Positions 1,982 to 31,023 of a DNA stretch of 32,000 nucleotides are shown in pieces. The position numbers were made by a program, and so were the translations under genes. How positions within the stretch are numbered: the stretch's first letter is position 1; the number at the start of each line of letters is the position of its first letter. Under the pieces are notes generated by a model, which ran no database searches, was not told the origin of the DNA, and was given only the letters and a program-made list of their open reading frames with translations. Source of the DNA: Halomicronema hongdechloris C2206 (GTDB lineage: Bacteria > Cyanobacteriota > Cyanobacteriia > Phormidesmidales > Phormidesmidaceae); assembly GCF_002075285.3 (NCBI RefSeq), contig NZ_CP021983.2, forward strand, positions 1,620,001 to 1,652,000, in the 5' to 3' direction.

Positions 1982-4900
1982 ATGAAGGTGCGGATCTATG
2001 TTCTAGCTTGGGGGGGTGTGATACTGTCCTGGCTCGAAGTACCTACTCAGGTATCGATGGGTTTCGGGGCAACAGGGTTAGCCGCTGCCGAGATTTCCCA
2101 GCCTGCTGATAGCGGCGAGGAGGTGGAAGCTCTCAGTGAAGCCGAGATGGGGCTTTCTGATCAGGGCGCATCTCTCCATTTCGCCCTCACCTGGGCCAGC
2201 CAGCATCCCGCGGCCACTGCCACAATCCCCCAAACAGAAGCCAGTCAGCATTTAGAGACTTTACAGACGTACCGGCGTGAGGCCAGTCAGTATATCGCCC
2301 AAGCCACCGCGCTGTTAACCACTGGCGAGATTGACGCCGCCCTTGACTCCTATGACCGGGCCATCCAGCTATGGCAACAAGGGCTGGAGCTACTGCAGTC
2401 GCAGGCTGCCCCTGATCTGCAGCGGGAATTTCTGCTGGGACTGTCCCTTGCCTTCGGAGTGGTGGGGGAGCAGCACCGTCAGGTCCAACGCTACGATCAG
2501 GCCCTAGCGACGACGGAGCAGGGACTACGCTATGGTCAACGGCTCTTGGCTTTGACTGATGCTGCCGATGGTTCAGAGGATGCTTTCTATCCGGAGGCGC
2601 TCAATGCGCTGCAACTGCTCTACAGCAATCTTGGCTTCATTTACGCCGGGCAGCATCTCTATCCGGAGGCGCTGGCGGCCCAGCAGCAGGCGTTGGCGAT
2701 GGCTGCGCAGCTGGATGATCCGGCCCTGATGTTCCGGAGTCTGACGGCCATCTATGCCACCCATGTAGCCCTGAGCGACTACCGGCAAGCGCTGACGATA
2801 AATGAACGGCGGCTTGCGATCGCAACTACCCTAGAAGACCCGGATGGGCAGCTATCTGCCCTGATAGGCCTGGGCAGAACCTACCACGACCTGGGCCGCT
2901 ATCCAGAGGCATTAGCCCACCATCAGCGGGCCTTGTTCCTGGCCAGAGAGCACAGCCGTCTCAGAGATGAAATCTCCAGCCTCAACAATCTGGGGCTGAC
3001 TCACAGCGTGTTAGGACGGTATGACGAGGCCCTAACGGCCCTAAATACTGCCCTCAGCCTCACCCGAGAGCTGCGCCAGCGTCTCCAAACAGCCGATACC
3101 CTGGAGCTTGATCGAGCCTGCTTCCCGCTGCTCAGCCAGGAGTTCAGCCGCACCGACGTCTCCCGACAATTCTGCCTGGAGGGCACCTGGCTCTCCGAGA
3201 GCAAGATTCTCAACACCATGGCGAGCGTCTATGAAGCCCAGGGCCGCTACTCAGAGGCCCTGGAGCGCTACCAACAATCCCTTGCGATCGCAAAAGAGCA
3301 CCTCCAGGGGAGTCCGCTCTACAGCAAACAGGACGAAGCGACGTTTCTGAATAATATTGGCGGGCTTCACGGAAATCGAGGCGACTACGATCAGGCCCGG
3401 GAGTATTACCAGCAGGCCTTCGCCCTGCAAACCGCTATCGCAGACCGGCAAGGCATGGCCGTCAGCCTCAATAATATCGGCGCTCTCTATGAGACCCAGG
3501 GACGATACCCCGAGGCACTGAATCAGCTCAACCGGGCCTTGGAACTCGCTGAAGCCCTTGGGCTGCAAACCTTAAAAGGCAGTGTCCTGAGTAATTTGGG
3601 GTCAATATATCGGCAACAAGGCGAGTTTGAGCGGGCCGCAGCCCTCTACCAAGCGTCCCTGGAACTCGATCGCAGCTTGGGACGCCGAGACGACGTGGCC
3701 GTGAGCTTCAATAATCTCGGCCTGCTCAAATTTGAACAGGGCCAGTACGGCCAAGCCATCGACTACGTGCAGCAAGCCCTGGCCATTCATCGGGCCATTG
3801 GTCAGCGCCCCCACCAAATTATCGATCTCAACAACCTCGGCAGCTATTACCGGGCCCAAGGTCGTTATGCCGATTCCCTAGGGAGGCTGCAGCAGGCGTT
3901 AGGGATTGCCCAAGAGATTGGCAACCGTAGCGGTCAAGCCTATGCCCTATTGCAGTTGGGCAAAACCCACAGACAGCTGGGCCAGTATGAGCCCGCCCTC
4001 GCCTTCAGCCAGCCAGCCCTGTCCCTGTTTCAGGCCATGGGCGATCGCACCGGTGAGGCGGCAACCTTAGCCGACCAGGGGCTCATCTACGCCCAACAAA
4101 ACCGCCACGAGTTAGCCCTGCAGAGCTTCGAAGCAGCCCTGGCCATCTATCGCACCACAGGAGATGTAGCAGGGGAAAGTATCACCCTGCAACAGGTGGG
4201 CTTCCTGCACGAGAAGGCAGGCGACTATCCAGCTGCCGAGACCGCCTTCCAGCAGACATTAGCCATCCAGCAACAAATTGGGGCACGAGGCTTTGAGGGC
4301 ATCAGCTTACAAGGGTTGGGCACCGTCTATGCCGCCCAAGGCCATCCCCGAGCCCTGGAGACCTTACAACGGGCTATCGCCCGCCATCGAGACGTGGGTA
4401 ATCGCCCCAGGGAAGCCGATGCCCTGAACAATCAAGGGGCAGCGCTGATTCGCGCGGGCAAATTTTCCCAGGCTGAGGCCGTCCTCCGTCAGTCCCTTGA
4501 CCTGTTTGAATCCCTGCGCACGGATCTCCTCGATGACCAGTTGATTGCGATTCTCGACAGTCAGGCCAGCGCCTATGCCAACCTGGAGCGGGCGTTGATC
4601 GCTCAAGACAAACCCACCGAGGCCCTAGCTATTACCGAACGAGGGCGGGCTCGGGCCTTTGTGCTGCAACTTGCCGGGCGCCTGTCCAAAAGCGCCAAGC
4701 CGAACTGGCGATTCATCCCACGGCTCAGGCCCCGACAATTGCTGAAATCCGGCAGATTGCCCGCGACAACAACACAACCCTGGTGGCCTACTCCCTGATC
4801 TTCGATCAAGCCCTCTATATCTGGGTGGTTCAGCCCTCGGGCAACATCGAGTTTCGCGCCATCGACTGGGAGGCGTCACTCTGGCAATGCCGATTTGAGC

Positions 4901-5924
4901 GTCAATCCCCTTGCGGCTATTGACGGTCCCCTCTATCGCCATGGGTCGGCGCTGACAACACGAGTTGCCACTGTCAGAGCCAGGATTACCATTGAGCGGC
5001 ACGACTCGTCGACCCAACTACAAGCCCTGCATCAGCTCTTAATCGAGCCCATTGCCGACCTATTGCCCCCAGATCCCGAGCAGACCGTCGTTTTTATTCC
5101 CCAGGGCAGCCTTTTCCTGGTACCGTTCCCCGCCTTACAAGACCCAGACGGCACCTATCTGATTGACAACCATACCGTTCTCACCGCCCCATCGATTCAG
5201 GTGTTTGGTCTGGCCAGTGCCATGAGACGGCAACGAGGTGGGGAGCCGACCCTGAGCCCGGTCGCAGGGGAGGGTTTGCGATCCGAGCAGACTGCCTTGG
5301 TCGTGGGGGATCCGGTGATGCCCTCTGTTTGGTTGCCAGAGGTGGGTCAACAGGTGCAGCTAGCCCCTCTCCCCGGGGCCAGGACTGAAGCTGAGACAAT
5401 TGGTCGTTTTCTGGGCGTCCCCGCCCTCACCGGCACTCAGGCCAGCGAGGCCCATGTCAAGCAGCGACTGCCCTCAGCCCGACTGATTCACTTAGCCACC
5501 CATGGCCTGCTCGACCACGGCCATCCTCAAGCCTCCGGCGCTCCGGATGTGCCGGGAGCGCTGGCGCTAGCTCCCGGAGACGGTGAAGACGGCTTGCTCA
5601 CCACTGCCGAAATTTTGGCGATGGAGCTGCAGGCCGAACTCGCTATTCTCAGTGCCTGTGATACCGGGCCGGGGCCGCATTACTGGCGATGGCGTAGTGG
5701 GACTATCCCGCTCTTTGATTACGGCTGGGGTGCCCAGTGTGATCGTGTCGTTGTGGGCCGTGCCGGATGCTCCTACCGCGGACCTGATGACGGAGTTTTA
5801 CCGCCAGCTTCAGCAGGGACAATCCCCGGCCCAGGCGTTACGGCAGGCGATGTTAACGATCCAGCAGAAACACCCAAATCCTAGAGACTGGGCCGGGTTT
5901 ACGCTCCTGGGGGCAGCGGAGTAA
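1982..5924 (+). pseudogene. TPR-repeat / CHAT-domain (caspase-like) protein, broken by at least three frameshifts
   Basis: ORF 1982..4798 is about 20 TPR-like repeats (LNNLG..Y..QGRY.EAL). The CHAT region continues in frame 1 (PTIAEIRQIARDNNTTLVAYSLIFDQALYIWVVQPSG, stop at 4921). It returns to frame 2 (ORF 4895..5884, with LIHLATHG and ILSACDTG), then moves to frame 0 (RGRITGDGVVGLSRSLITAGVPSVIVSLWAVPD, ending at 5924). Confidence 0.8.
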
Positions 5925-13917: not shown

Positions 13918-14280
13918 ATGCGATCGCATCTTGCAACTGGGCAGCCGTCCCTTGATTTCCGGGAAAAGATTATTGACGTCTACTTTACAGAGCGGCTGTC
14001 GGTTCGCAAGTTAGCTAAGCGATTTGGCGTGTCGAAGAGTTTTATTGAAACTCTGTTGAAGCGCCTGCGAGAAACGGGTGATATTCAGCCTAAGCCTCAT
14101 GGGGGTGGCGCTCAGCCTAAACTCAATGCAGAACAACTAAAACTTGTGAAAGCCTTGGTGGATGCGGACAATGATGCGACCTTAGACGAACTCCGTGATC
14201 GCCTAGCTGCCGAGACCTCGATTTTGATCAGTCGGTCGTCCATGGGACGAATCGTGCAACAGCTTGAACTCACCCGTTAA
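13918..14280 (+). CDS. IS630-family transposase, N-terminal HTH part (orfA)
   Basis: LDFREKIIDVY..RLSVRKLAKRFGVSKSFIETLLKRLRETGDIQPKPHGGG is the classic IS630 N-terminus. It ends at a TAA that opens an A8 run. Confidence 0.8.
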   Translation: MRSHLATGQPSLDFREKIIDVYFTERLSVRKLAKRFGVSKSFIETLLKRLRETGDIQPKPHGGGAQPKLNAEQLKLVKALVDADNDATLDELRDRLAAETSILISRSSMGRIVQQLELTR

Positions 14281-14318
14281 AAAAAACGCTGCACGCTACT
14301 GAAGCAGGGAGTCTACGG

Positions 14319-14894
14319 GTGCGACAAGCCCGAGTCGAGTATTGGCAACAGATCCGAGACATAGCCCCGGAGAACCTGGTGTTTATAGATGAGGCGGGCG
14401 TTAACTTAGCCATGATCCGATTATATGCCCGAGCTCTCAAGGGCCAGCGTGCGATTGGGGAGCGTCCGGCCAAACGGGGGCAGAATGTGCCGCTGGTCAA
14501 TGCGCTCAGTTTGCGTGGTCCGATTGCTCCGCTGACGATTCTCGCTGCGATGGATGGCTTGACATTTGAAGCGTACATCATTCGTCGAGTAGCACCTAAC
14601 CTATGGCCTGGAGCCGTACTTATTGTGGATAATAGCTCTAGCCATAAAGCCACAGAAGAGGTCACAGTTGCGCTTGAGGCGGTAGGTGCCGAGATCAGAT
14701 TTTTACCACCCTATTCCCCAGACTTCTCACCGATAGAACCATTTTGGTCGAAGGTGAAGAATATTTTGAAATCAGTCGGCGCACGGACTTATCAAGCACT
14801 AGAAGAAGCGATTGAGTCTGCCTATTCTCAAGTCACGTTGGAAGATATTCGTAACTGGTTTACAAACGACTGTTACTGTACCTCACTCAAATGA
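14319..14894 (+). CDS. IS630-family transposase, DDE catalytic part (orfB)
   Basis: Catalytic-region motifs are FIDEAGVNL, LIVDNSSSHK and PPYSPDFSPIEPFWSKVK. The frame is already open from 14268 (THPLKKTLHATE), giving the usual ...KKTLHA.E junction of single-ORF IS630 transposases. Confidence 0.8.
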   Translation: MRQARVEYWQQIRDIAPENLVFIDEAGVNLAMIRLYARALKGQRAIGERPAKRGQNVPLVNALSLRGPIAPLTILAAMDGLTFEAYIIRRVAPNLWPGAVLIVDNSSSHKATEEVTVALEAVGAEIRFLPPYSPDFSPIEPFWSKVKNILKSVGARTYQALEEAIESAYSQVTLEDIRNWFTNDCYCTSLK

Positions 14895-15071
14895 GAACCG
14901 CTATATTGGAAAAACTGAACGAAATGTATGTAAACTCCCTCATTGAGGTTGCTCCATATCTTGATCAAGGAACTTTACAAAAAGTTTTCACCCCTCAAAA
15001 ATCCCAAAAGGTTCTGCTTTCATAAGCTAGCATTATAGTGTTGATGGAAAATTAATATTCTCCTAAGTGCT

Positions 15072-15287
15072 ATGACAGCAGCAGAGCTATTTCCAACTCT
15101 AAGAAGCCTACCTCGCGTAGACAAGTTAAAGGTGATGCAGTTTCTTATCGCTGAATTAGCAAGGGAAGAGGAACCCGTCTTGCAACCAGGAGCAACTTAT
15201 TCACTCTGGTCGCCTTTGGACTCACATGAAGCTGCTCACAAACTTGCTCAACTTCTAGAATCGGAGCAACCGACGCAAAATGCGTAA
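15072..15287 (+). CDS. Small acidic protein (71 aa), antitoxin-like partner of the downstream protease
   Basis: ORF MTAAELFPTLRSLPRVDKLKVMQFLIAELAREEE... Its stop overlaps the next start by 8 nt (ATGCGTAA). I do not recognise the family with confidence. Confidence 0.55.
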   Translation: MTAAELFPTLRSLPRVDKLKVMQFLIAELAREEEPVLQPGATYSLWSPLDSHEAAHKLAQLLESEQPTQNA

Positions 15288-15708
15288 AGCTCAGAGATTC
15301 AATTTTATAGAGGGATTTGATGCCTTTGGTGTTCCGGATGCTCTACCTCAGCTACCTCTAGCTCTGACATATCGAGGTGTGTCGGCGGAAGTTTCAGCAT
15401 TGCTAGATACAGGGGCAAGTGTTAATGTCTTGCCCTACAGTATTGGACTTCAACTTGGTGCAGTTTGGGAAGAGCAGACAACTTCCGTTACATTGGCTGG
15501 TAACTTAGCTTCTCTGGAAGCGCGAGGACTGTTGGTTTCTGCCAAGATCGGCGATTTCGATCCCGTCCGCTTAGTCTTCGCATGGAGTGTATCTGATGAT
15601 GCTCCACTGCTGTTGGGTCGGATGAATTTCTTTTTAGAGTTTGATGTCTGCTTCTACCGTTCTCAACTTGTATTTGAGGTTCGCCCCAAATCTCAAGATA
15701 CCGTATAA
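15280..15708 (+). CDS. Retropepsin-like (clan AA) aspartic protease domain protein
   Basis: The 142-aa protein has the LLDTGASVNVLP active-site motif (D-T-G-A) and the size of a single retropepsin lobe. Its start overlaps the upstream ORF. Confidence 0.7.
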   Translation: MRKAQRFNFIEGFDAFGVPDALPQLPLALTYRGVSAEVSALLDTGASVNVLPYSIGLQLGAVWEEQTTSVTLAGNLASLEARGLLVSAKIGDFDPVRLVFAWSVSDDAPLLLGRMNFFLEFDVCFYRSQLVFEVRPKSQDTV

Positions 15709-15771
15709 TCGGGATAGGGAGAATCCTCACCAATCTCCCCCTCCCACACCATCCGGCAAGCGAGTCCGCAC
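15708..15771 (-). ncRNA. Group II intron, 3' segment (3' half of domain V plus domain VI); 3' end approximate
   Basis: The minus strand reads GUGCGGAC UCGCUUGCCGGAUGGU GUGGGAGGGGGAGAUUGGUGAGGAUUCUCCCUAUCCCGAU. GGGAGA/UCUCCC extended by GGGAGG/UAUCCC forms a helix with an unpaired A 7 nt before a GAU end, as expected for a domain VI branch site. Confidence 0.5.
15764..15771. repeat. Target-site duplication GTCCGCAC (left copy) of the ISAs1-type element
   Basis: The identical 8-mer occurs at 17002-17009, immediately outside the two inverted repeats. Confidence 0.85.
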
Positions 15772-17001
15772 CAGGGCTATTTCATTCTAAAAATGGCCTT
15801 GAGGGTATCTAGACCAAACTTGCAGAGTCGTTCAGCCTGAGCCATATTGGCGAACTCGTTGGAGCGATAGAGGTTGAGCGCGAAGTTTCGAGCGACGGCG
15901 AAGATTTGCGGCAACTGGTGCATACGAATGCGCGAAGCATCTTCTCCCTGGGTCACATCCCGGATATGATGTACCTTATTTTCAACGCCCCAATAGCCCC
16001 GAATGCGCCGAGCCAAGGATTCCGCTGATTCTAAAAACGAGGCGACATAGTAGCGGGTCTCAGTTTCTAAGTGAGGCTGCCCGCCCTTCTTGAAGTGTCG
16101 CTCACTCTCCACTCGAATGAGCGTCTTCAGCCCTGGCCAGGGCTTGATGTTATCGAGGGTGGTGCATAGGCTAACGACCCGCTTCTCCAGTCGCCCATGC
16201 CCTTTACTGACCTCGGTGTAGCTGTCCTCAGCGATAAAGTTGGCCTGAACGCTTTTGTGCAAGTTACCCTGATTGCCTTTGAGGGCACCCAAGTAATGAT
16301 TGTCGGTGTCAAGGATGAGCTGACAGTTTTTTTTGGGTGCTAATCGCATCAAAGGCTATCACCACCCCCTTCAGCGCCAGTTGCTTAATGAACTCGGGCA
16401 GGGCTTTGATTTCGTTGGTCTTGTGCTCTACCTGATAGGGCTCCAGAATCAACCCCCGCTCCACCAGATAAGCACTGACCAATAGAATGGCGGGATGAGG
16501 GGGAGAGTCAGGATTGTCAGTCTCCAGTTGATACGACCCGCGTAAGACTTTGCCATCCACCGCTAAGGTTTCACCGGCTAACGGTTCAATGCCAAAGAAC
16601 CGAGCCAAGGCCGCCGAATACTGTCCATAGTCTAGCTTTAGCAGCACCCGGCGAATCGTGCTGTAGGAGGGAAGACGGCCCTTGGGCGGGTTGAAGAGGT
16701 CAATCAACTCGCTGCGGTAGCTTTTGAGCCAGTCGCCAATGGCCAGAAATCCACGATTACCGGCCGTCACCGCCAGGGTGAAGAGCGCCAGGCATAAGGC
16801 CATCTGATGTCGTTTGCCAGAGGCCTGACGGACATCTGGCAGGGCAACGAAGGCTTCGAGGATCTCGATGCGCTCTACAGCAGGCTCATGCCTCGAGTCG
16901 AGGGTAGTAGGGGTAGGGGGCAGACGCATAGACGCTAGGACCATTGGGATTAGCCTGAAACTCTAGCATCTTTAGGTCCCCTTGAGAATGAAATGGCCCT
17001 G
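15772..17001 (-). mobile_element. ISAs1-family insertion sequence (1230 bp)
   Basis: The terminal inverted repeats are CAGGGCTATTTCATTCT (15772-) and the reverse complement of 16985-17001, CAGGGCCATTTCATTCT (16/17 identical). They start with CAGGG, as I recall for the ISAs1 family. The element is flanked by an 8-bp direct repeat. Confidence 0.85.
15777..16944 (-). pseudogene. ISAs1-family (H-repeat-associated) transposase, split by a frameshift in a homopolymer
   Basis: The N-terminal ORF 16309..16944 (LPDVRQASGKRHQM..., LAVDGKVLRGSY, AFDAISTQKK) and the C-terminal ORF 15777..16352 (NHYLGALKGNQGNL..., IRGYWGVENKVHHIRDVTQGEDASR) overlap at T8 (16327-16334). Removing one base gives the contiguous reading STQKNCQLILDTDNHYLGALKGNQ. 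Confidence 0.8.
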
Positions 17002-17009
17002 GTCCGCAC
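17002..17009. repeat. Target-site duplication GTCCGCAC (right copy) of the ISAs1-type element
   Basis: Identical to 15764-15771. Confidence 0.85.
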
Positions 17010-17565
17010 AGGGCGGTTCCTCGGAAAGGTTTAGATATCAGGACAATGTCTGACTCCCAGGGCTGGCTACATAGTTAAGCGCTGTTCGATTAGTTCCCCC
17101 GGTCGGGTTCATCGCTCCCCTTCGCCGATTGTTGCCAACCGTCGGGCCGTCCCGATTGCCTTAGGGGTCTGTGGCTACCTGGCCGTTTCCCGCCAGACCT
17201 CAGTCAGACTCCCCTCGCGCTCTAGACTGCCACAGGGGCAGACCTCCCCAGATAAGACCGTGAACGTCGCCTGAGCGTGAGTCGAAGGCTGTCGCTGCAA
17301 CCGCACCATTTACCGCGTTCCCTGAACCAGTGGGCTTTGTCTTGTGTGGCAGACTCGCCCCAGGAATCTCGGCCTTCTATGATGTTTCTGTCCGTCGGCT
17401 CGCAGCTTTGCCGTTGGCTTCCTCCAGACCCTCCCTCGCGGGAACGCCCTTGCCTTAAGCTAGTCGTTGGTGTCTCTCGGCTCCAATTAGTTTCGAGCAT
17501 TTGGACACTGGTTCTCCTGCAGGGGACTTTCACCCCATTGATTCATGCCCGTGCCGGGCGTACAC
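17002..17565 (-). ncRNA. Group II intron, 5' segment (5' end, domains I-IV and 5' half of domain V); ORF-less
   Basis: The minus strand begins GUGUACGCCCGGCACGGGCAUGA..GGGGUGAAAGUCCCC. It continues with GCUUAAGGCAAGGGCG..GGUCUGGAGGAAGCCAACGGCAAAGC, ACAAAGCCC, GCGGUAAAUGGUGCGG, CUGGGGAGGUCUG and GAACCGCCCUGUGCGGAC. These blocks occur in the same order as in my recollection of the Oceanobacillus iheyensis group II intron (GUGUGCCCGGCAUGGGUGCAG..GGGUGAGAGUCCC..GAAGGAAGCGGACGGCAAACC..GAACCGCCGUAUACC). No reverse-transcriptase ORF is present. Confidence 0.75.
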
Positions 17566-17701
17566 AATTGCGTGAACCGGAGCGGCGAATTGGGCGGAAT
17601 CTGAAATCAACGCGTAACGTCGCCGCCTGGTTACGCTAAACGTTAAAGCGAACAGATTCAGAGTAAGCGAGTATTCATCTTAATAACAGGGGAAGATTGA
17701 C

Positions 17702-18553
17702 ATGGAAACCATCAATCAACAAAACGAAAATTCCAATCCCAGCTTGGGTTACTATCCCAACCCTGGCTGGGAATGGCAGAAACCCGAACCCAAAACCTAT
17801 CTCAAAGAGCATAACTTAGCTCAATATGCTCGCGTTTGGATCTTGAATCTAGTTGAGATTGTTCACTGGATTCTGCTAGTGCCCTCTTTCATTTTATCCT
17901 TCATCATTTTTCAACATGGGGATGCTCTGGCTGAAAGGCTTGGGACAGATATACAGGTCTATCTACTCTCCGTTGCCCCTTTGATTCAGGCTTTTGCTGG
18001 CTTAGTCGCTGTTGTTATGCATGAATATGAAGGCTGGCAGGTTGCGTACTTTAAAAATCCGCTCGACACCGATTTTGATATCAAGAATTTCAATAATGAG
18101 TGGTTGCGTGAAGTAGCATACAAGATGCTATTTTTCCTTCAAATAGTTGGACTGCTTGCTTTCTCTCTTGGTGTGTTTGGCATTAACAAAGTTTCGATCG
18201 CCTTTGCCGTTGCTAGTATCGTTCTTGCTTTTCTTGCCCCTCAAAATCCCAAAGCCACATTTACCTTTAACAATCAACCTGTCTTCCCTATTGCCACAGC
18301 ATTAGTAGTGATCTTTATCGTTAATGCAATCGTCAATTTCATTGCCTACTATTATCTTTTCTCTCCAGCCCTTCAACTTGCACAACTACCTAGAATTCTA
18401 GCTGGATTGGCTCCACTCCTTTTCATGATGGGAGGCGTGATTGAAGGAGTGTTTGCTGAGTCCACATTTAATCAATGGATTCACTTTGGGGCTGTTATCT
18501 TTCTCAATCTTGGACTACTGGTACAGATATACTTCTTCAATCTGCTCTGGTAG
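17702..18553 (+). CDS. Polytopic membrane protein of unknown function (about 6-7 TM)
   Basis: 283 aa with a purine-rich stretch upstream (caggggaag) and multiple long hydrophobic segments. The local sequence is low-GC. I recognise no family. Confidence 0.6.
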   Translation: METINQQNENSNPSLGYYPNPGWEWQKPEPKTYLKEHNLAQYARVWILNLVEIVHWILLVPSFILSFIIFQHGDALAERLGTDIQVYLLSVAPLIQAFAGLVAVVMHEYEGWQVAYFKNPLDTDFDIKNFNNEWLREVAYKMLFFLQIVGLLAFSLGVFGINKVSIAFAVASIVLAFLAPQNPKATFTFNNQPVFPIATALVVIFIVNAIVNFIAYYYLFSPALQLAQLPRILAGLAPLLFMMGGVIEGVFAESTFNQWIHFGAVIFLNLGLLVQIYFFNLLW

Positions 18554-19141: not shown

Positions 19142-21043
19142 ATGTCTTCAAAAAAATTTTTTTTAGATTTACTTTGGCTGGGCAAGAGTTTGACCATCCT
19201 CTTGGCTACCATTTTTGCTGCCCTGGCGATCGCCACTTTCATCCTCGTTTTGCGGGGGAATTCACCACCAAGTTTGGTTTGGATTGTGCTTGTCCTAATA
19301 GGATCGCTGCTTTTATTTGTAGTGGCGATTCAACTCATCTATGCCAATAGTTGGGCTGGAACCCCTATCATTCTGAAGCCTACCCATACAGGTACAGTCA
19401 TTAGCCTCATTTTTGTGCAAGGAGAGGGTATCCCAATTGAGCGATATCGCCAGATAGCAGAGGCAATTCAATCGACAGCCTCCGACTTAGCAATTTGGGT
19501 GGGCATTCCGCAGTTTATTGGAGATTCTCCGATTCCGCGGGAAACTGGATTAGCAATTAATAAGGTACTCCAGCAGATGAAGCAGGAAGGAATGCCGGAG
19601 ACTGAAAACCAATTCTTTATTGCCCACTCTGTTGGTGGGATTGCTCTGCAAAAGTATCTCAAGGCTTTTCCCAAGCGTGTTAAAGGGCAAATATTGATGG
19701 GGTCCTTCCTAGGAAAGTGGAATCTCTCAAAGCTGGATGAGGCAGGGAAAACAATCATTGATTATCCTGTTCCGACTTTGACCATTGGTGGAACATTGGA
19801 TGGCTTGGCTCGAATTACTCGGATTGCAGCAGCCTTTTGGTATCAACAGATCAATTCATCCCAACCGACCGACCAGCAGAACTTTCCGGTGGTCACTATT
19901 GATGGTGCCAGCCATATGCAGTTCGCCTCCGGACCACCGACTTCTTTTGTGGCTGATTTTGACCTTAAACCTGGTGATGGGGTCGAAGATACTGACGTTC
20001 ATCAGCAGGTCGGTCAGTTGGTGTACAACTTTATGGGTACAAGGTTATCTACTTCCCAGTCTGAAGGTAGTTTGAAGTTTTTGAGTGCCGAACGAGAAAA
20101 GACCCATCAGGACGTAAAGCCTATTATCGACGCACTCAAATTAGAGGGATACAACGGCTTTAAACCGGCTTGTTACAACAGTCAGTTGGATAATACTCGA
20201 ACAGATCCGAAATGCACGCCATATTCCCCGTGGATTCAAGATAAGGCGAATGAGATTATGGCTGGCAATGACTTATCTCCTGTCTCATTCAGTTTAGAGG
20301 TCAAGGATAGTTTTCATCGTTCTTACTCCATCAATCCCGTTCATCTCCCAAATATCAAGAATTATTGTGGAGGCAAAGAACCTTGTACTTTGCAGGTTAA
20401 TAGCGTTACCCAAGCTCTCTATAATCTATTTGATTTTTTTGATGCAGGCTTTTTCCCAATCTCAGCCTTCTCGTTGCGAACAAAGCTCAATTCCCGACAG
20501 AGATTTTGGTACCATGCTGCTAGCGCTAGTGGAGATGAGCGTCCCTATCCGGATTTCCAGAAGACTGATGGAGCTTCTATCGGGGCTGAAATCAATCAAC
20601 AGGTTTATAAATGGGCTTTAGATCATGCAGGGGATAAGCCGCGTGACTATTTCAATAAAGTTGGTGTGCCAATGGAGATGGGAAAAGATGTGGTACCGTT
20701 CGTTTCAGCGGGACCCGTCTTTCTTTTGAATTACCCTAAATACAATTATGTATCCAATTATGTATCCAAAGACGGATTGCAGTCTTTTCAGGTTAGAGCA
20801 GGAGCGATGAAAACCTCTCTTAGCTATCCACTCAAGGTTTCAAGTGGTTTTCATTATTGCCAGCTTCTTTCTCCTGCTGCTGCTATGGAGTGGATCTATG
20901 TTGATGGCTTACGGCCTAAAGCTTCTATTTCTGGTGACACGGTTGTTTACGGTCCTTTTGGAGGTATTATAAGAACCCTCAGGTTTGTTTTACGGGGATT
21001 ACTCCGTCAAACCAGAACCAAGGGCCTATTCAAGCGGGTGTGA
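19142..21043 (+). CDS. Membrane-anchored alpha/beta-hydrolase (lipase/esterase-like) with a large C-terminal domain of unknown function
   Basis: 633 aa with two N-terminal TM helices. It has the nucleophile elbow FIAHSVGG, a candidate acid in TIGGTLDG, and a candidate His in DGASHMQF. The remaining roughly 330 aa are unassigned. Confidence 0.65.
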   Translation: MSSKKFFLDLLWLGKSLTILLATIFAALAIATFILVLRGNSPPSLVWIVLVLIGSLLLFVVAIQLIYANSWAGTPIILKPTHTGTVISLIFVQGEGIPIERYRQIAEAIQSTASDLAIWVGIPQFIGDSPIPRETGLAINKVLQQMKQEGMPETENQFFIAHSVGGIALQKYLKAFPKRVKGQILMGSFLGKWNLSKLDEAGKTIIDYPVPTLTIGGTLDGLARITRIAAAFWYQQINSSQPTDQQNFPVVTIDGASHMQFASGPPTSFVADFDLKPGDGVEDTDVHQQVGQLVYNFMGTRLSTSQSEGSLKFLSAEREKTHQDVKPIIDALKLEGYNGFKPACYNSQLDNTRTDPKCTPYSPWIQDKANEIMAGNDLSPVSFSLEVKDSFHRSYSINPVHLPNIKNYCGGKEPCTLQVNSVTQALYNLFDFFDAGFFPISAFSLRTKLNSRQRFWYHAASASGDERPYPDFQKTDGASIGAEINQQVYKWALDHAGDKPRDYFNKVGVPMEMGKDVVPFVSAGPVFLLNYPKYNYVSNYVSKDGLQSFQVRAGAMKTSLSYPLKVSSGFHYCQLLSPAAAMEWIYVDGLRPKASISGDTVVYGPFGGIIRTLRFVLRGLLRQTRTKGLFKRV

Positions 21044-21460
21044 GTTCGATCGGACGATCTCGTAGGATGGGTTGAAATATAAAACCTATCATCCACAGAC
21101 GTTTGCGGGTCTAACCATTCAATGAAGCGGATGCTACGAGGATCACGGGCGCCTATTTTGCCTCGAAGGTGTTGTCGCACCGCTTATCTCATAGTTAGGC
21201 AGCTACGCCCCCGGCAATTGATCCTAACCACGAAAGAGTGATTGAACCGAAAGCCTGAAAGTCTTGATTAGCAGAGTGTATCATCCTAGAAATTTCCTGT
21301 TTGATTACCGCATAATTATTGATGTCCAACTCGCAATCTTTAAGGACATGATCGATGATCGCGAGTGTGGAAACCCCAATCTCTGCATAGTCAGAAAAAC
21401 CTCTGAATTCAACCTATCCGCCATTTTGCAAGAGGTCTCTTAAAGCATGAAAACGTATCT

Positions 21461-29723: not shown

Positions 29724-31023
29724 CTGACTGCCTGACACATCTTTTACTCTAGTCGGCAGGATAGAGAGCGGATGCGAGAGAACCAGATTTGGTCGTAATA
29801 GTCGTGCTCCGCTTTTTTGGAGGCAAAACAAGGCTCTGGGTCACGGACTAACAGCGCTATCGGCTCTAGAAGCTGTCGTCCTTTGTGAACGACTCCCTTA
29901 AGCCAGCGCAATCCAATCTTGAGGTAGCTGAGTCCGCGCCGCCAATGAGGGTCTACCTGCTGCCTAAGGCCTTCAATCTGAACCGCCATGCCAGTGGTTG
30001 TTCCATAAAGCAGTGCAATAGCGGCCACTAGATAAAGTCGCTCAAGGGCTACCGCTGAGCGGATTCGGGAGTCTTCAATCTCGAAAGCTCCTGATTTGCT
30101 ATCCAAAAACAGCTCCTCTACTCTGAAACGCAACGCGTAGCGCCAGAGCGTCTGCAAGGTAGGCGGTTCATCGGTGATGACGGCCCAAGGCTCTTTGACG
30201 CCTTTAAGCGTCGCCAGCACGATGTTGCACTGGTGGGAGCCATCCTGCCACAGCCTGACATTTCGATAGAAAATCGCCTCGCCTTTTGGCGGCCACAGAT
30301 ATCTCACTTCAGTCGGATAACGCCTTGGCCCGTGCAGCAGGACATCGCAGGGCACTCGCAAGCAGTAGTGCCAACTGCTCGCTTGCAACCAACTCATCAA
30401 GTCGTGGTTGGCAAAGCCTCGGTCGGCCAGCAGCATTAGGTTCGGGTACTGCCTCAAAAGCCACCGGGCACGGCGCAGCAAAGGGCGGTATTCTTCAAAA
30501 GCCACCGTTGCACTGCCATGCTCAAGCACTCGCCACAGTAGCGGGACTGCTCGTCCGCAGCACACCACTGACAGGTGAATCATGCAGTATTGGTTCCACA
30601 GCACCGTTGTATCGAGTGCCAGATACAGCCGCTTGCCCTCCCACTGCCTCAGCGTCAGCAGCACCAGCGGTAGGTAGAGCTGATTTATCTCAACGAGCCG
30701 GTTGCCGAAAAATCGATGCCACCGCCGCTCGAAGCTTTGCGCTTTGTTGGCACGGCTTATCACGTAGGACTCCCAAGCAGGTGGGCTCAGCTCACCACTA
30801 CAAATCAGGGCGGTGACCATCCAAGATAGGGCTTTGATATGGCGCAAGTCCCGGTAGTGGCTGTATTGACGCAGATAGTGCAGCAGTTGATCATAGAGCT
30901 GGGTAGAGCTTGGCATGTCGCTTTGGCCGTCAGTGTGGTAACTACAGCCTCGCACACGAGCTCTGCCTATTTCCTCTTTGTCCTGATATGACTACCTTTC
31001 AGCTACTTCTGTCAGGCACTCAG
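29724..31023 (-). mobile_element. IS4-family insertion sequence (1300 bp)
   Basis: The terminal inverted repeats are CTGACTGCCTGACA (29724-29737) and the reverse complement of 31010-31023, CTGAGTGCCTGACA (13/14). It has a 9-bp duplication and a single DDE transposase ORF. Confidence 0.85.
29744..30916 (-). CDS. IS4-family DDE transposase
   Basis: The likely start is MPSSTQLYDQ (ATG at 30916). Candidate catalytic residues lie in LALDTT and LLADRGF. YALRFRVEELFLDSK fits the Y-(2)-R-(3)-E-(6)-K signature of IS4-family enzymes. Confidence 0.85.
   Translation of the reverse strand: MPSSTQLYDQLLHYLRQYSHYRDLRHIKALSWMVTALICSGELSPPAWESYVISRANKAQSFERRWHRFFGNRLVEINQLYLPLVLLTLRQWEGKRLYLALDTTVLWNQYCMIHLSVVCCGRAVPLLWRVLEHGSATVAFEEYRPLLRRARWLLRQYPNLMLLADRGFANHDLMSWLQASSWHYCLRVPCDVLLHGPRRYPTEVRYLWPPKGEAIFYRNVRLWQDGSHQCNIVLATLKGVKEPWAVITDEPPTLQTLWRYALRFRVEELFLDSKSGAFEIEDSRIRSAVALERLYLVAAIALLYGTTTGMAVQIEGLRQQVDPHWRRGLSYLKIGLRWLKGVVHKGRQLLEPIALLVRDPEPCFASKKAEHDYYDQIWFSRIRSLSCRLE

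Follow-up and report, generated by a model that had tools for sequence, protein, structure and literature searches.

A probable relic of an attC-targeting group IIC intron without an open reading frame, split by an ISAs1 element, in Halomicronema hongdechloris C2206

The chromosome of the cyanobacterium Halomicronema hongdechloris C2206 contains, in the 32,000-nt stretch analysed here (contig NZ_CP021983.2, positions 1,620,001 to 1,652,000; hereafter the window, numbered from its first base), a segment at 15708-17565 in which one mobile element lies inside another. Read along the minus strand, an attC-like hairpin (17564..17649) is followed by the 5' segment of a group II intron (17002..17563), by an insertion sequence (IS) of the ISAs1 family (15772..17001, 1,230 bp), by the 3' segment of the intron (15708..15771) and by the start of the 3' exon (15701..15707). 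On the opposite strand, a cassette-like gene for a retropepsin-type aspartyl protease of 142 amino acids (aa; 15280..15708, plus strand) runs up to the end of the intron, its TAA stop codon lying within the attC core. An earlier note on this DNA, made from the letters alone, had proposed an intron without an open reading frame (ORF) that was interrupted by an ISAs1 element. The analysis presented here leads us to conclude, with considerable confidence, that the minus strand of 15708-17565 holds the decayed relic of an ORF-less intron of the group IIC-attC type, which has an attC-like hairpin as its target and is split by the ISAs1 element.

The single Rfam match at curated thresholds in the whole window is that of the conserved domain I core (17281..17445, minus strand) to RF02001 (group-II-D1D4-3), which covers the full model with 122.7 bits and E=5e-25, the gathering score being 32; the assignment to an ORF-less group II intron on the minus strand is thereby borne out. 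The ribozyme blocks cited by the earlier note were likewise all found on the minus strand of 17002-17565, in the order in which it had given them. The 5' segment comprises domain I, domain II, the remnant of a domain IV stub and the 5' strand of domain V with its loop, and it ends at 17009-17002 with one copy of the target duplication of the IS, GUGCGGAC. Over intron positions 1-449, it is 83% identical to ORF-less relatives from other genomes. In addition to the second copy of the duplication (15764-15771), the 3' segment contains the 3' strand of domain V as well as domain VI. According to its predicted fold, domain VI has its branch-point A at a distance of 8 nt from the end of the intron, ...CCCGAU, at 15708. 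In the unedited window, this segment gives a partial match to RF00029, with 16.1 bits and therefore below the gathering score of 40, which extends over 15708-15778, takes in domain VI as well as the 3' half of domain V, and stops exactly at 15708.

Removal of the IS and of one repeat copy in silico yields a 620-nt intron with a contiguous domain V-VI. Its last 74 nt, which span the repaired junction, are 91.9% identical to domain V-VI of the relatives L017, L043 and L033, and these exceed the gathering score of RF00029 (42.9 bits; relatives 41-43 bits), which argues that removing the IS is the correct reconstruction. As regards the 5' end, the comparison of empty with occupied target sites and the TTGT/T consensus set the true start at 17563 (GUACG) rather than at 17565 (GUGUACG), as had been assumed before, since the bases at 17565-17564 (GU) belong to the attC core. 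The claim that the window contains no maturase or reverse transcriptase (RT) was upheld by a tblastn search with the intron-encoded protein of a relative, in which the best E was 0.48.

The ISAs1 element, on the minus strand, sits in the terminal loop of domain V, and its position and target duplication are as they had been described from the letters. On either side of it stands one copy of a perfect 8-bp direct repeat, GTCCGCAC (15764-15771 and 17002-17009), and it carries terminal inverted repeats of the form CAGGGC[T/C]ATTTCATTCT. The transposase gene (15777..16944, minus strand) is split into two ORFs, 16309-16944 and 15777-16352, which match NCBIfam NF033564 at profile positions 3-152 with 87.7 bits and 151-313 with 123 bits (cut-off 70), and in which Pfam recognises DDE_Tnp_1_assoc and DDE_Tnp_1. 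Within an A8 run at ~16333-16340, a frameshift of 1 nt causes the split, and removal of one A restores a single transposase ORF of 388 aa; the frameshift could be a true mutation that inactivates the gene, or else a sequencing error in the homopolymer. Apart from this extra A, the transposase, the inverted repeats and the 8-bp duplication are those of an ISAs1-family element. No second copy of the IS or of the intron was found in the 32-kb window.

The target of the intron is best understood from its two exons. The 5' exon on the minus strand is a hairpin of ~85 nt, TTTAACG...GCGTAACCAGGCGGCGA...TCGCCGCTCCGGTTCACGCAATTGT, which ends in TTGT, the consensus of intron-binding site 1 (IBS1), the last bases being AATTGT (17569-17564). 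The 3' exon begins with a T at 15707 and reads T/ATACGG (the slash in such strings marks an exon-intron boundary or a junction), and, joined to the GT at 17565-17564, it restores an attC core, GTTATAC. On the plus strand, the rejoined core GT/TATAC reads GTATAAC and includes the TAA stop of the protease-like gene. Stop codons within the attC core are usual for gene cassettes. The abutment of the intron end on the stop codon of the protease gene of the other strand, which had been pointed out before, is thus confirmed and is explained by insertion into the attC core that contains this stop. The final base of the intron lies opposite the last stop base (15708) as its complement, and without the intron the 5' exon would supply the same base. 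The rejoined exons are predicted to fold into a long hairpin, and the 5' exon of the window aligns with the 5' exons of ~45 other copies.

When ~50 copies of the intron are lined up, the intron always stands directly after the same ~80-nt element. This element is a long hairpin with compensatory changes in 10 of its 12 predicted pairs (43 sequences), has two single-base bulges, both on one arm, and lacks a U-tract. A covariance model built from it, R1, finds further hairpins on the same strand that are unoccupied and spaced at 0.3-2.5 kb, for instance four each in L003 and L067 and three in L013; same-strand arrays of such hairpins were also observed in L055, L047, L030, L023, L002, L010 and L033. 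Unoccupied copies start with RYYYAAC (GCCTAAC, GCATAAC and the like) and end in TT-GTTAGGC, GTTATGC or GTTAGAC, and occupied ones read TTGT/GTACG...CCCGAT/TAGNC. Empty sites with the ending GTTATAC, which is the core rebuilt in the window, are also seen in the loci, next to those with GTTAGGC or GTTATGC. Both RYYYAAC and GTTRRRY are core sequences conserved in the attC sites of integrons. To judge from their sequences, these hairpin arrays of filamentous cyanobacteria resemble integron cassette arrays, and the target in the window is predicted to be an attC-type hairpin, with the intron at TTGT/T within its core and antisense to the adjacent gene.

Group IIC-attC introns insert at TTGT/T (IBS1/IBS3) in the bottom strand of attC, where the hairpin replaces IBS2, and lie opposite to the direction of cassette transcription (PMC7923331); in the case of S.ma.I2, the intron separates the aadB gene from its attC (PMC3001079). 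The present locus shows the same combination of a TTGT/T site, a hairpin directly upstream and a neighbouring gene on the opposite strand, and the complement of TTGT, ACAA, can be read in a domain I loop. The antisense orientation of the intron to its neighbour follows from the targeting of the attC core and is no accident. The conserved 5' exon was also considered as the end of a protein-coding target, for which the ORFs across the spliced junctions are short and inconsistent in frame, and a structured DNA or RNA element is preferred.

A second, unoccupied attC-like site appears to be present at 21109..21200 (minus strand; GCCTAAC ... CATCCGCTTCATTGAATG GTTAGAC). It shares the strand of the occupied site, from which it is 3.5 kb away, and stands ~65 nt downstream of an ORF at 19142-21043; it was the best hairpin in a scan for RYYYAAC...GTTRRRY cores combined with folding, a scan that is unspecific in that shuffled sequence gives 0-5 hits. 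Since no integrase gene is found in the window, this part of the chromosome would be at most a small attC cluster without integrase. Two or more attC sites on a single strand within 4 kb define such a cluster (CALIN), while a complete integron also has intI in the vicinity.

The lineage to which the intron belongs is represented in many other genomes. A search of plasmid records returned a relative in Kovacikia minuta with 77% identity, in addition to ~190 weaker matches on proteobacterial plasmids, all of which start from query position 1. A 20-nt domain I pattern identified 73 loci in species-representative genomes, mostly from Leptolyngbya, Nodosilinea and allied cyanobacteria, and the 5'-end pattern of the sub-lineage of the window identified 8 loci in metagenomes, where the relatives are only ~73% identical. 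Eleven of the 20 complete copies are 700-733 nt long, contain no ORF and lie at different attC sites, namely L059 (3349-4057), L046 (6004-6713), L018 (83-792, minus strand), L003 (2023-2731), L038 (467-1177, minus strand), L065 (4894-5626) and L001 (4001-4700), along with L022, L032, L048 and L052. All three Rfam ribozyme modules are kept in L059, L018, L038 and L065. The ~705-nt copies have in common a small structured domain IV stub, and positions 449-620 of the window copy are homologous to these ORF-less copies only, which argues that the window copy stems from an ORF-less lineage and has not lost an ORF in place.

Copies that encode a protein exist side by side with the short ones, as in Nodosilinea LEGE 07088, which has one copy without an ORF (L003) and one with an ORF (L047). 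The intron in L017 encodes a protein of 445 aa, a group II RT/maturase (TIGR04416, 383 bits) that lacks an endonuclease domain. A proteobacterial relative of the same layout is an intron on a Citrobacter IncP plasmid, which has the same 5' sequence, follows a hairpin ending in ...CCTTGT/ and is itself followed by CCCGAT/TAAGC at its 3' boundary; this intron is antisense to the small genes that flank it, and its protein is 51% identical to that of L017. A Verrucomicrobia metagenome-assembled genome was found to contain six contigs with the domain I pattern (L004, L011, L020, L021, L035 and L071), which indicates that the lineage is not limited to cyanobacteria and proteobacteria. In L033 (1547-5193), two intron 5' halves were observed (RF02001 at 1664-1852 and 3944-4137), each after an attC-like hairpin, with a single domain V-VI (5122-5193); this may represent a truncated copy followed by a full one, and the same locus contains a T-box leader at 111-376.

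ORF-less copies from three genomes are 97% identical to each other, which suggests a recent mobilisation in trans and horizontal spread, and the ORF-less family looks, on sequence grounds, as if it were active. No description of a ~705-nt ORF-less IIC-attC family was found in open-access literature text. On balance, we are slightly inclined to regard these introns as an apparently undescribed family of non-autonomous retroelements that resides in the attC arrays of Leptolyngbya-, Nodosilinea- and Kovacikia-like cyanobacteria, the window copy being a dead member of it.

Twenty distinct sequences were used to define domain V of the lineage. Its lower helix has 10 bp and includes a CGC triad with a G.U wobble; the other elements are a bulge of 2 nt, an upper helix of 3 bp and a loop of 4 nt. 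Over the 13 pairs of the domain, 97.3% of cells are paired and three pairs show compensatory changes; this pairing was reached by 0 of 500 shuffles, and no slid register came close to it. A CGC triad is typical of IIC introns such as O.i.I1, and the CGC that had been read in the window at the place of AGC was indeed present, as it is in all 20 sequences of the lineage. Replacement of AGC by CGC is a known variant of the triad (PMC4424553). As for individual relatives, the domain V loop of L003 is short by 2 nt, and L046 presents a G-to-U change at the middle base of the triad.

Against this background, the window copy carries several lesions, which were identified by means of an alignment, A1, with seven ORF-less relatives (74-86% identity). 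One is a 110-nt deletion, found in none of the seven, at 17117..17118 (minus strand), which has taken away J2/3 (AGAAGUCA), domain III in its entirety and the domain IV stub in its 5' half; consistently, the Rfam scan gave no match to RF01998 in the window, compared with 44-61 bits in relatives. A 22-nt insertion in domain I (17274..17295, minus strand) is absent from all seven relatives and looks, by its sequence, like a local imperfect duplication. Both of these lesions had been overlooked by the earlier note. The two mismatches that it had seen in the lower helix of the rebuilt domain V are real, are uncompensated and occur in no relative: the first is a C.A at the pair of the last C of the triad, and the second a U.C three pairs above. 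The window is thus the sole member of the 20-sequence set to break pairs 7-30 and 10-27, that is, 2 of the 13 pairs of domain V, and at the U.C position every change in the relatives is compensated (C-G, A-U, U-A and G-C are all seen). The predicted fold of domain V has -10.0 kcal/mol in the window versus -21.7 for L059/L018, and the two mismatches might possibly be lethal on their own.

Reverse splicing requires an intact ribozyme, so the 110-nt deletion must be later than the insertion of the intron at this site. With J2/3 and domain III gone and domain V interrupted, the copy descends from the group II family as a presumably non-working ribozyme, and we infer that the relic is now inactive. 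J2/3 and the domain V triad form the catalytic triple helix (PMC4424553), and the 110-nt deletion should therefore abolish catalysis by itself. The idea of an intron killed by a later IS consequently holds as far as the IS lies inside domain V, and is doubtful as to the IS being the killer, since the deletion would be lethal on its own. Similarly, out of the proposal of a decaying, trans-dependent or dead intron, decay or death is supported by more lesions than had been listed, while a supply of protein in trans would be a matter of inference.

Related loci were also looked for by exact matching. For a 22-nt pattern across the domain V junction as repaired, a genome contig collection whose representatives do not include the genome of the window gave 0 matches and contains no identical intact copy, a pattern across the 110-nt deletion junction had 0 matches in metagenome contigs, and an exact look-up of the two flanking proteins, in search of a locus without the IS or the intron, returned nothing on record. 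Elsewhere in the lineage, L058 (714-1128, minus strand) presents an internally deleted relic of 415 nt, in which domain I is joined to the end of domain VI and domains II-V are gone.

The attC nature of the target can be questioned. Group IIC introns mostly target terminator stem-loops (PMC4424553), no intI lies in the window, and the hairpins are unusually conserved across genera and correspond to no family reported by Rfam, so that they could be other repeated stem-loops, such as terminators or a cyanobacterial repeat family, targeted by IIC introns. This seems unlikely in view of the RYYYAAC and GTTRRRY cores at the hairpin ends, the restriction of the two single-base bulges to one arm, the same-strand arrays at cassette-like spacing and the lack of a U-tract; integrons are, moreover, known in cyanobacteria (PMC4889954), and the relative on a proteobacterial plasmid shows the same design. 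Another account, closer to the earlier note, would be that of a generic ORF-less group II intron that landed at a chance intergenic site, with no attC targeting, and was inactivated by the IS alone. Both the intron and the IS are real, and the lack of an integrase gene in the window and the low R1 score of its hairpin would fit with this account, but it leaves without explanation that ~50 related copies in other genomes share one position of a covarying attC-core hairpin. In addition, the window exons, TTGT / T, fit the published consensus, and lesions besides the IS are present, all of which makes a chance site highly improbable.

A different question is whether the relic has been kept for the benefit of the host, either through an outward promoter (Pout) for the genes from 17702 or by fixation of the protease cassette via the split attC. 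IIC-attC introns can bear outward promoters near their 5' end, as S.ma.I2 does (PMC3001079), and in the window domain I is well preserved (122.7 bits) and the intron parts the gene from most of the attC. Nevertheless, a scan revealed no sigma-70-like site on the plus strand in 15000-17750, and the preservation of domain I is equally expected of a young relic. The uncompensated domain V changes, the deletion and the frameshifted IS give no hint of selection, and we consider retention for the host to be quite improbable.

The reading of the locus as a decayed IIC-attC intron also has to face a number of observations that weigh against it. The best match of the window to R1 (17566-17649, E=0.013) reaches only 17 bits versus 23-90 bits for the hairpins in the loci, and the second site at 21109-21200 is marginal with this model (13.9 bits, E=0.08). 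No integron integrase is encoded in the 32-kb window, and the term attC relies on structure and core motifs. In domain V, the AY bulge binds the catalytic metal; the window and L003, together with the nearest relatives L059, L018 and L046, have a UU bulge at positions 23-24 instead of the usual AY, which is AC or AU in the other relatives. Finally, the best full-length relative is 86% identical and no close intact copy was found among the relatives recovered, so that some of the lesions could be older features of the lineage.

By analogy with what has been established for group IIC-attC introns (PMC7923331; PMC4424553), from which the steps of insertion are taken, the history of the locus may be proposed as follows. 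The RT/maturase would have come in trans from an ORF-containing relative at another place in the genome, and the RNA of the ORF-less IIC-attC intron together with this protein would have recognised the folded attC strand just downstream of the cassette-like gene. The hairpin would substitute for IBS2, with a short pairing between exon-binding site 1 (EBS1) and IBS1 reading TTGT and EBS3 reading the next T. The intron would then reverse-splice into single-stranded DNA at the attC-like hairpin and be copied from a replication-fork primer, a mode of priming suggested by the proteins of the lineage, which lack an endonuclease. The expected result is an intron that lies within the attC core, runs antisense to the cassette gene and parts this gene from its attC. 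The later decay is seen directly in the comparison with the relatives and involved the 110-nt deletion, the 22-nt insertion, the two substitutions in domain V and the insertion of ISAs1 into the domain V loop.

With regard to the neighbouring genes, the protease gene is overlapped by a small gene on the plus strand (15072-15287), which encodes a 71-aa protein with no family match. This gene pair (15072-15708) is located directly upstream of the attC-like site and resembles the layout of a two-gene cassette. An IS630/Tc1-like transposase in two ORFs, with HTH_32 followed by DDE_3 (13918-14894, plus strand), is found ~200 nt upstream of the pair, and a third transposase gene, encoding a DDE_Tnp_1 protein of 403 aa, lies at 29744-30955 on the minus strand. 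With three transposase elements, the window is rich in IS elements, which are often present in cassette arrays; integrons are known from cyanobacteria (PMC4889954). The rest of the window is ordinary cyanobacterial chromosome, with genes such as those for isoleucyl-tRNA synthetase and a helical carotenoid protein domain.

Group IIC-attC introns, such as S.ma.I2 of Serratia marcescens, were reportedly described by Quiroga in 2008, Leon and Roy in 2009 and Leon and co-workers in 2010. The window copy resembles them in its TTGT/T insertion point within an attC hairpin core, in its orientation opposite to a cassette gene that it parts from the attC, in the stem-loop predicted to take the place of IBS2, in the CGC triad and in the lack of an endonuclease domain in the proteins of its relatives; the 5' region of its ribozyme is 70-72% identical to introns on enterobacterial plasmids. 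Unlike those introns, it has no ORF, lies on a cyanobacterial chromosome with no integrase in the window, lacks J2/3 and domain III, and has a domain V that is mispaired and interrupted by an IS. UHB.F1 is likewise a degenerate IIC-attC intron within a cassette array and antisense to the cassettes; however, UHB.F1 is 5'-truncated with a frameshifted ORF, whereas in the window copy both ends are preserved, an ORF is lacking, and an internal deletion and an IS are present.

ORF-less bacterial group II introns that are mobilised or spliced in trans are said to have been described by Simon and co-workers in 2008. The window lineage is comparable to these in that the ORF-less copies encode no protein and that ORF-containing copies are present in the same genomes as ORF-less relatives. 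The described cases are mostly introns of class IIB/CL in homing sites, while the window lineage is predicted to be of class IIC at attC sites and the window copy is more degraded. A cyanobacterial case of this kind is cited in PMC4424553, where ORF-less bacterial group II introns are considered rare. Because of this rarity, a sizeable mobile family of ORF-less IIC introns would be a handy natural system for the study of mobilisation in trans and of the effect of introns on cassette excision or formation.

The intron, its ORF-less form and the IS all belong to known categories, and there is nothing unusual about the window copy as a relic of such mobile elements. Three layers of mobile DNA, an attC site, an intron and an IS, have left a scar in this region, which should be annotated as a pseudo-intron and not as a gene or a new RNA. 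With respect to the family, attC-targeting IIC introns, known mainly from the resistance integrons of proteobacteria, seem to be abundant in filamentous cyanobacteria, largely as a short form without a protein. If the ORF-less copies do form a family of non-autonomous retroelements in attC arrays, the cassette arrays of cyanobacteria host a miniature family of parasitic introns that part genes from their attC sites, and which could shape the mobility or the formation of cassettes.

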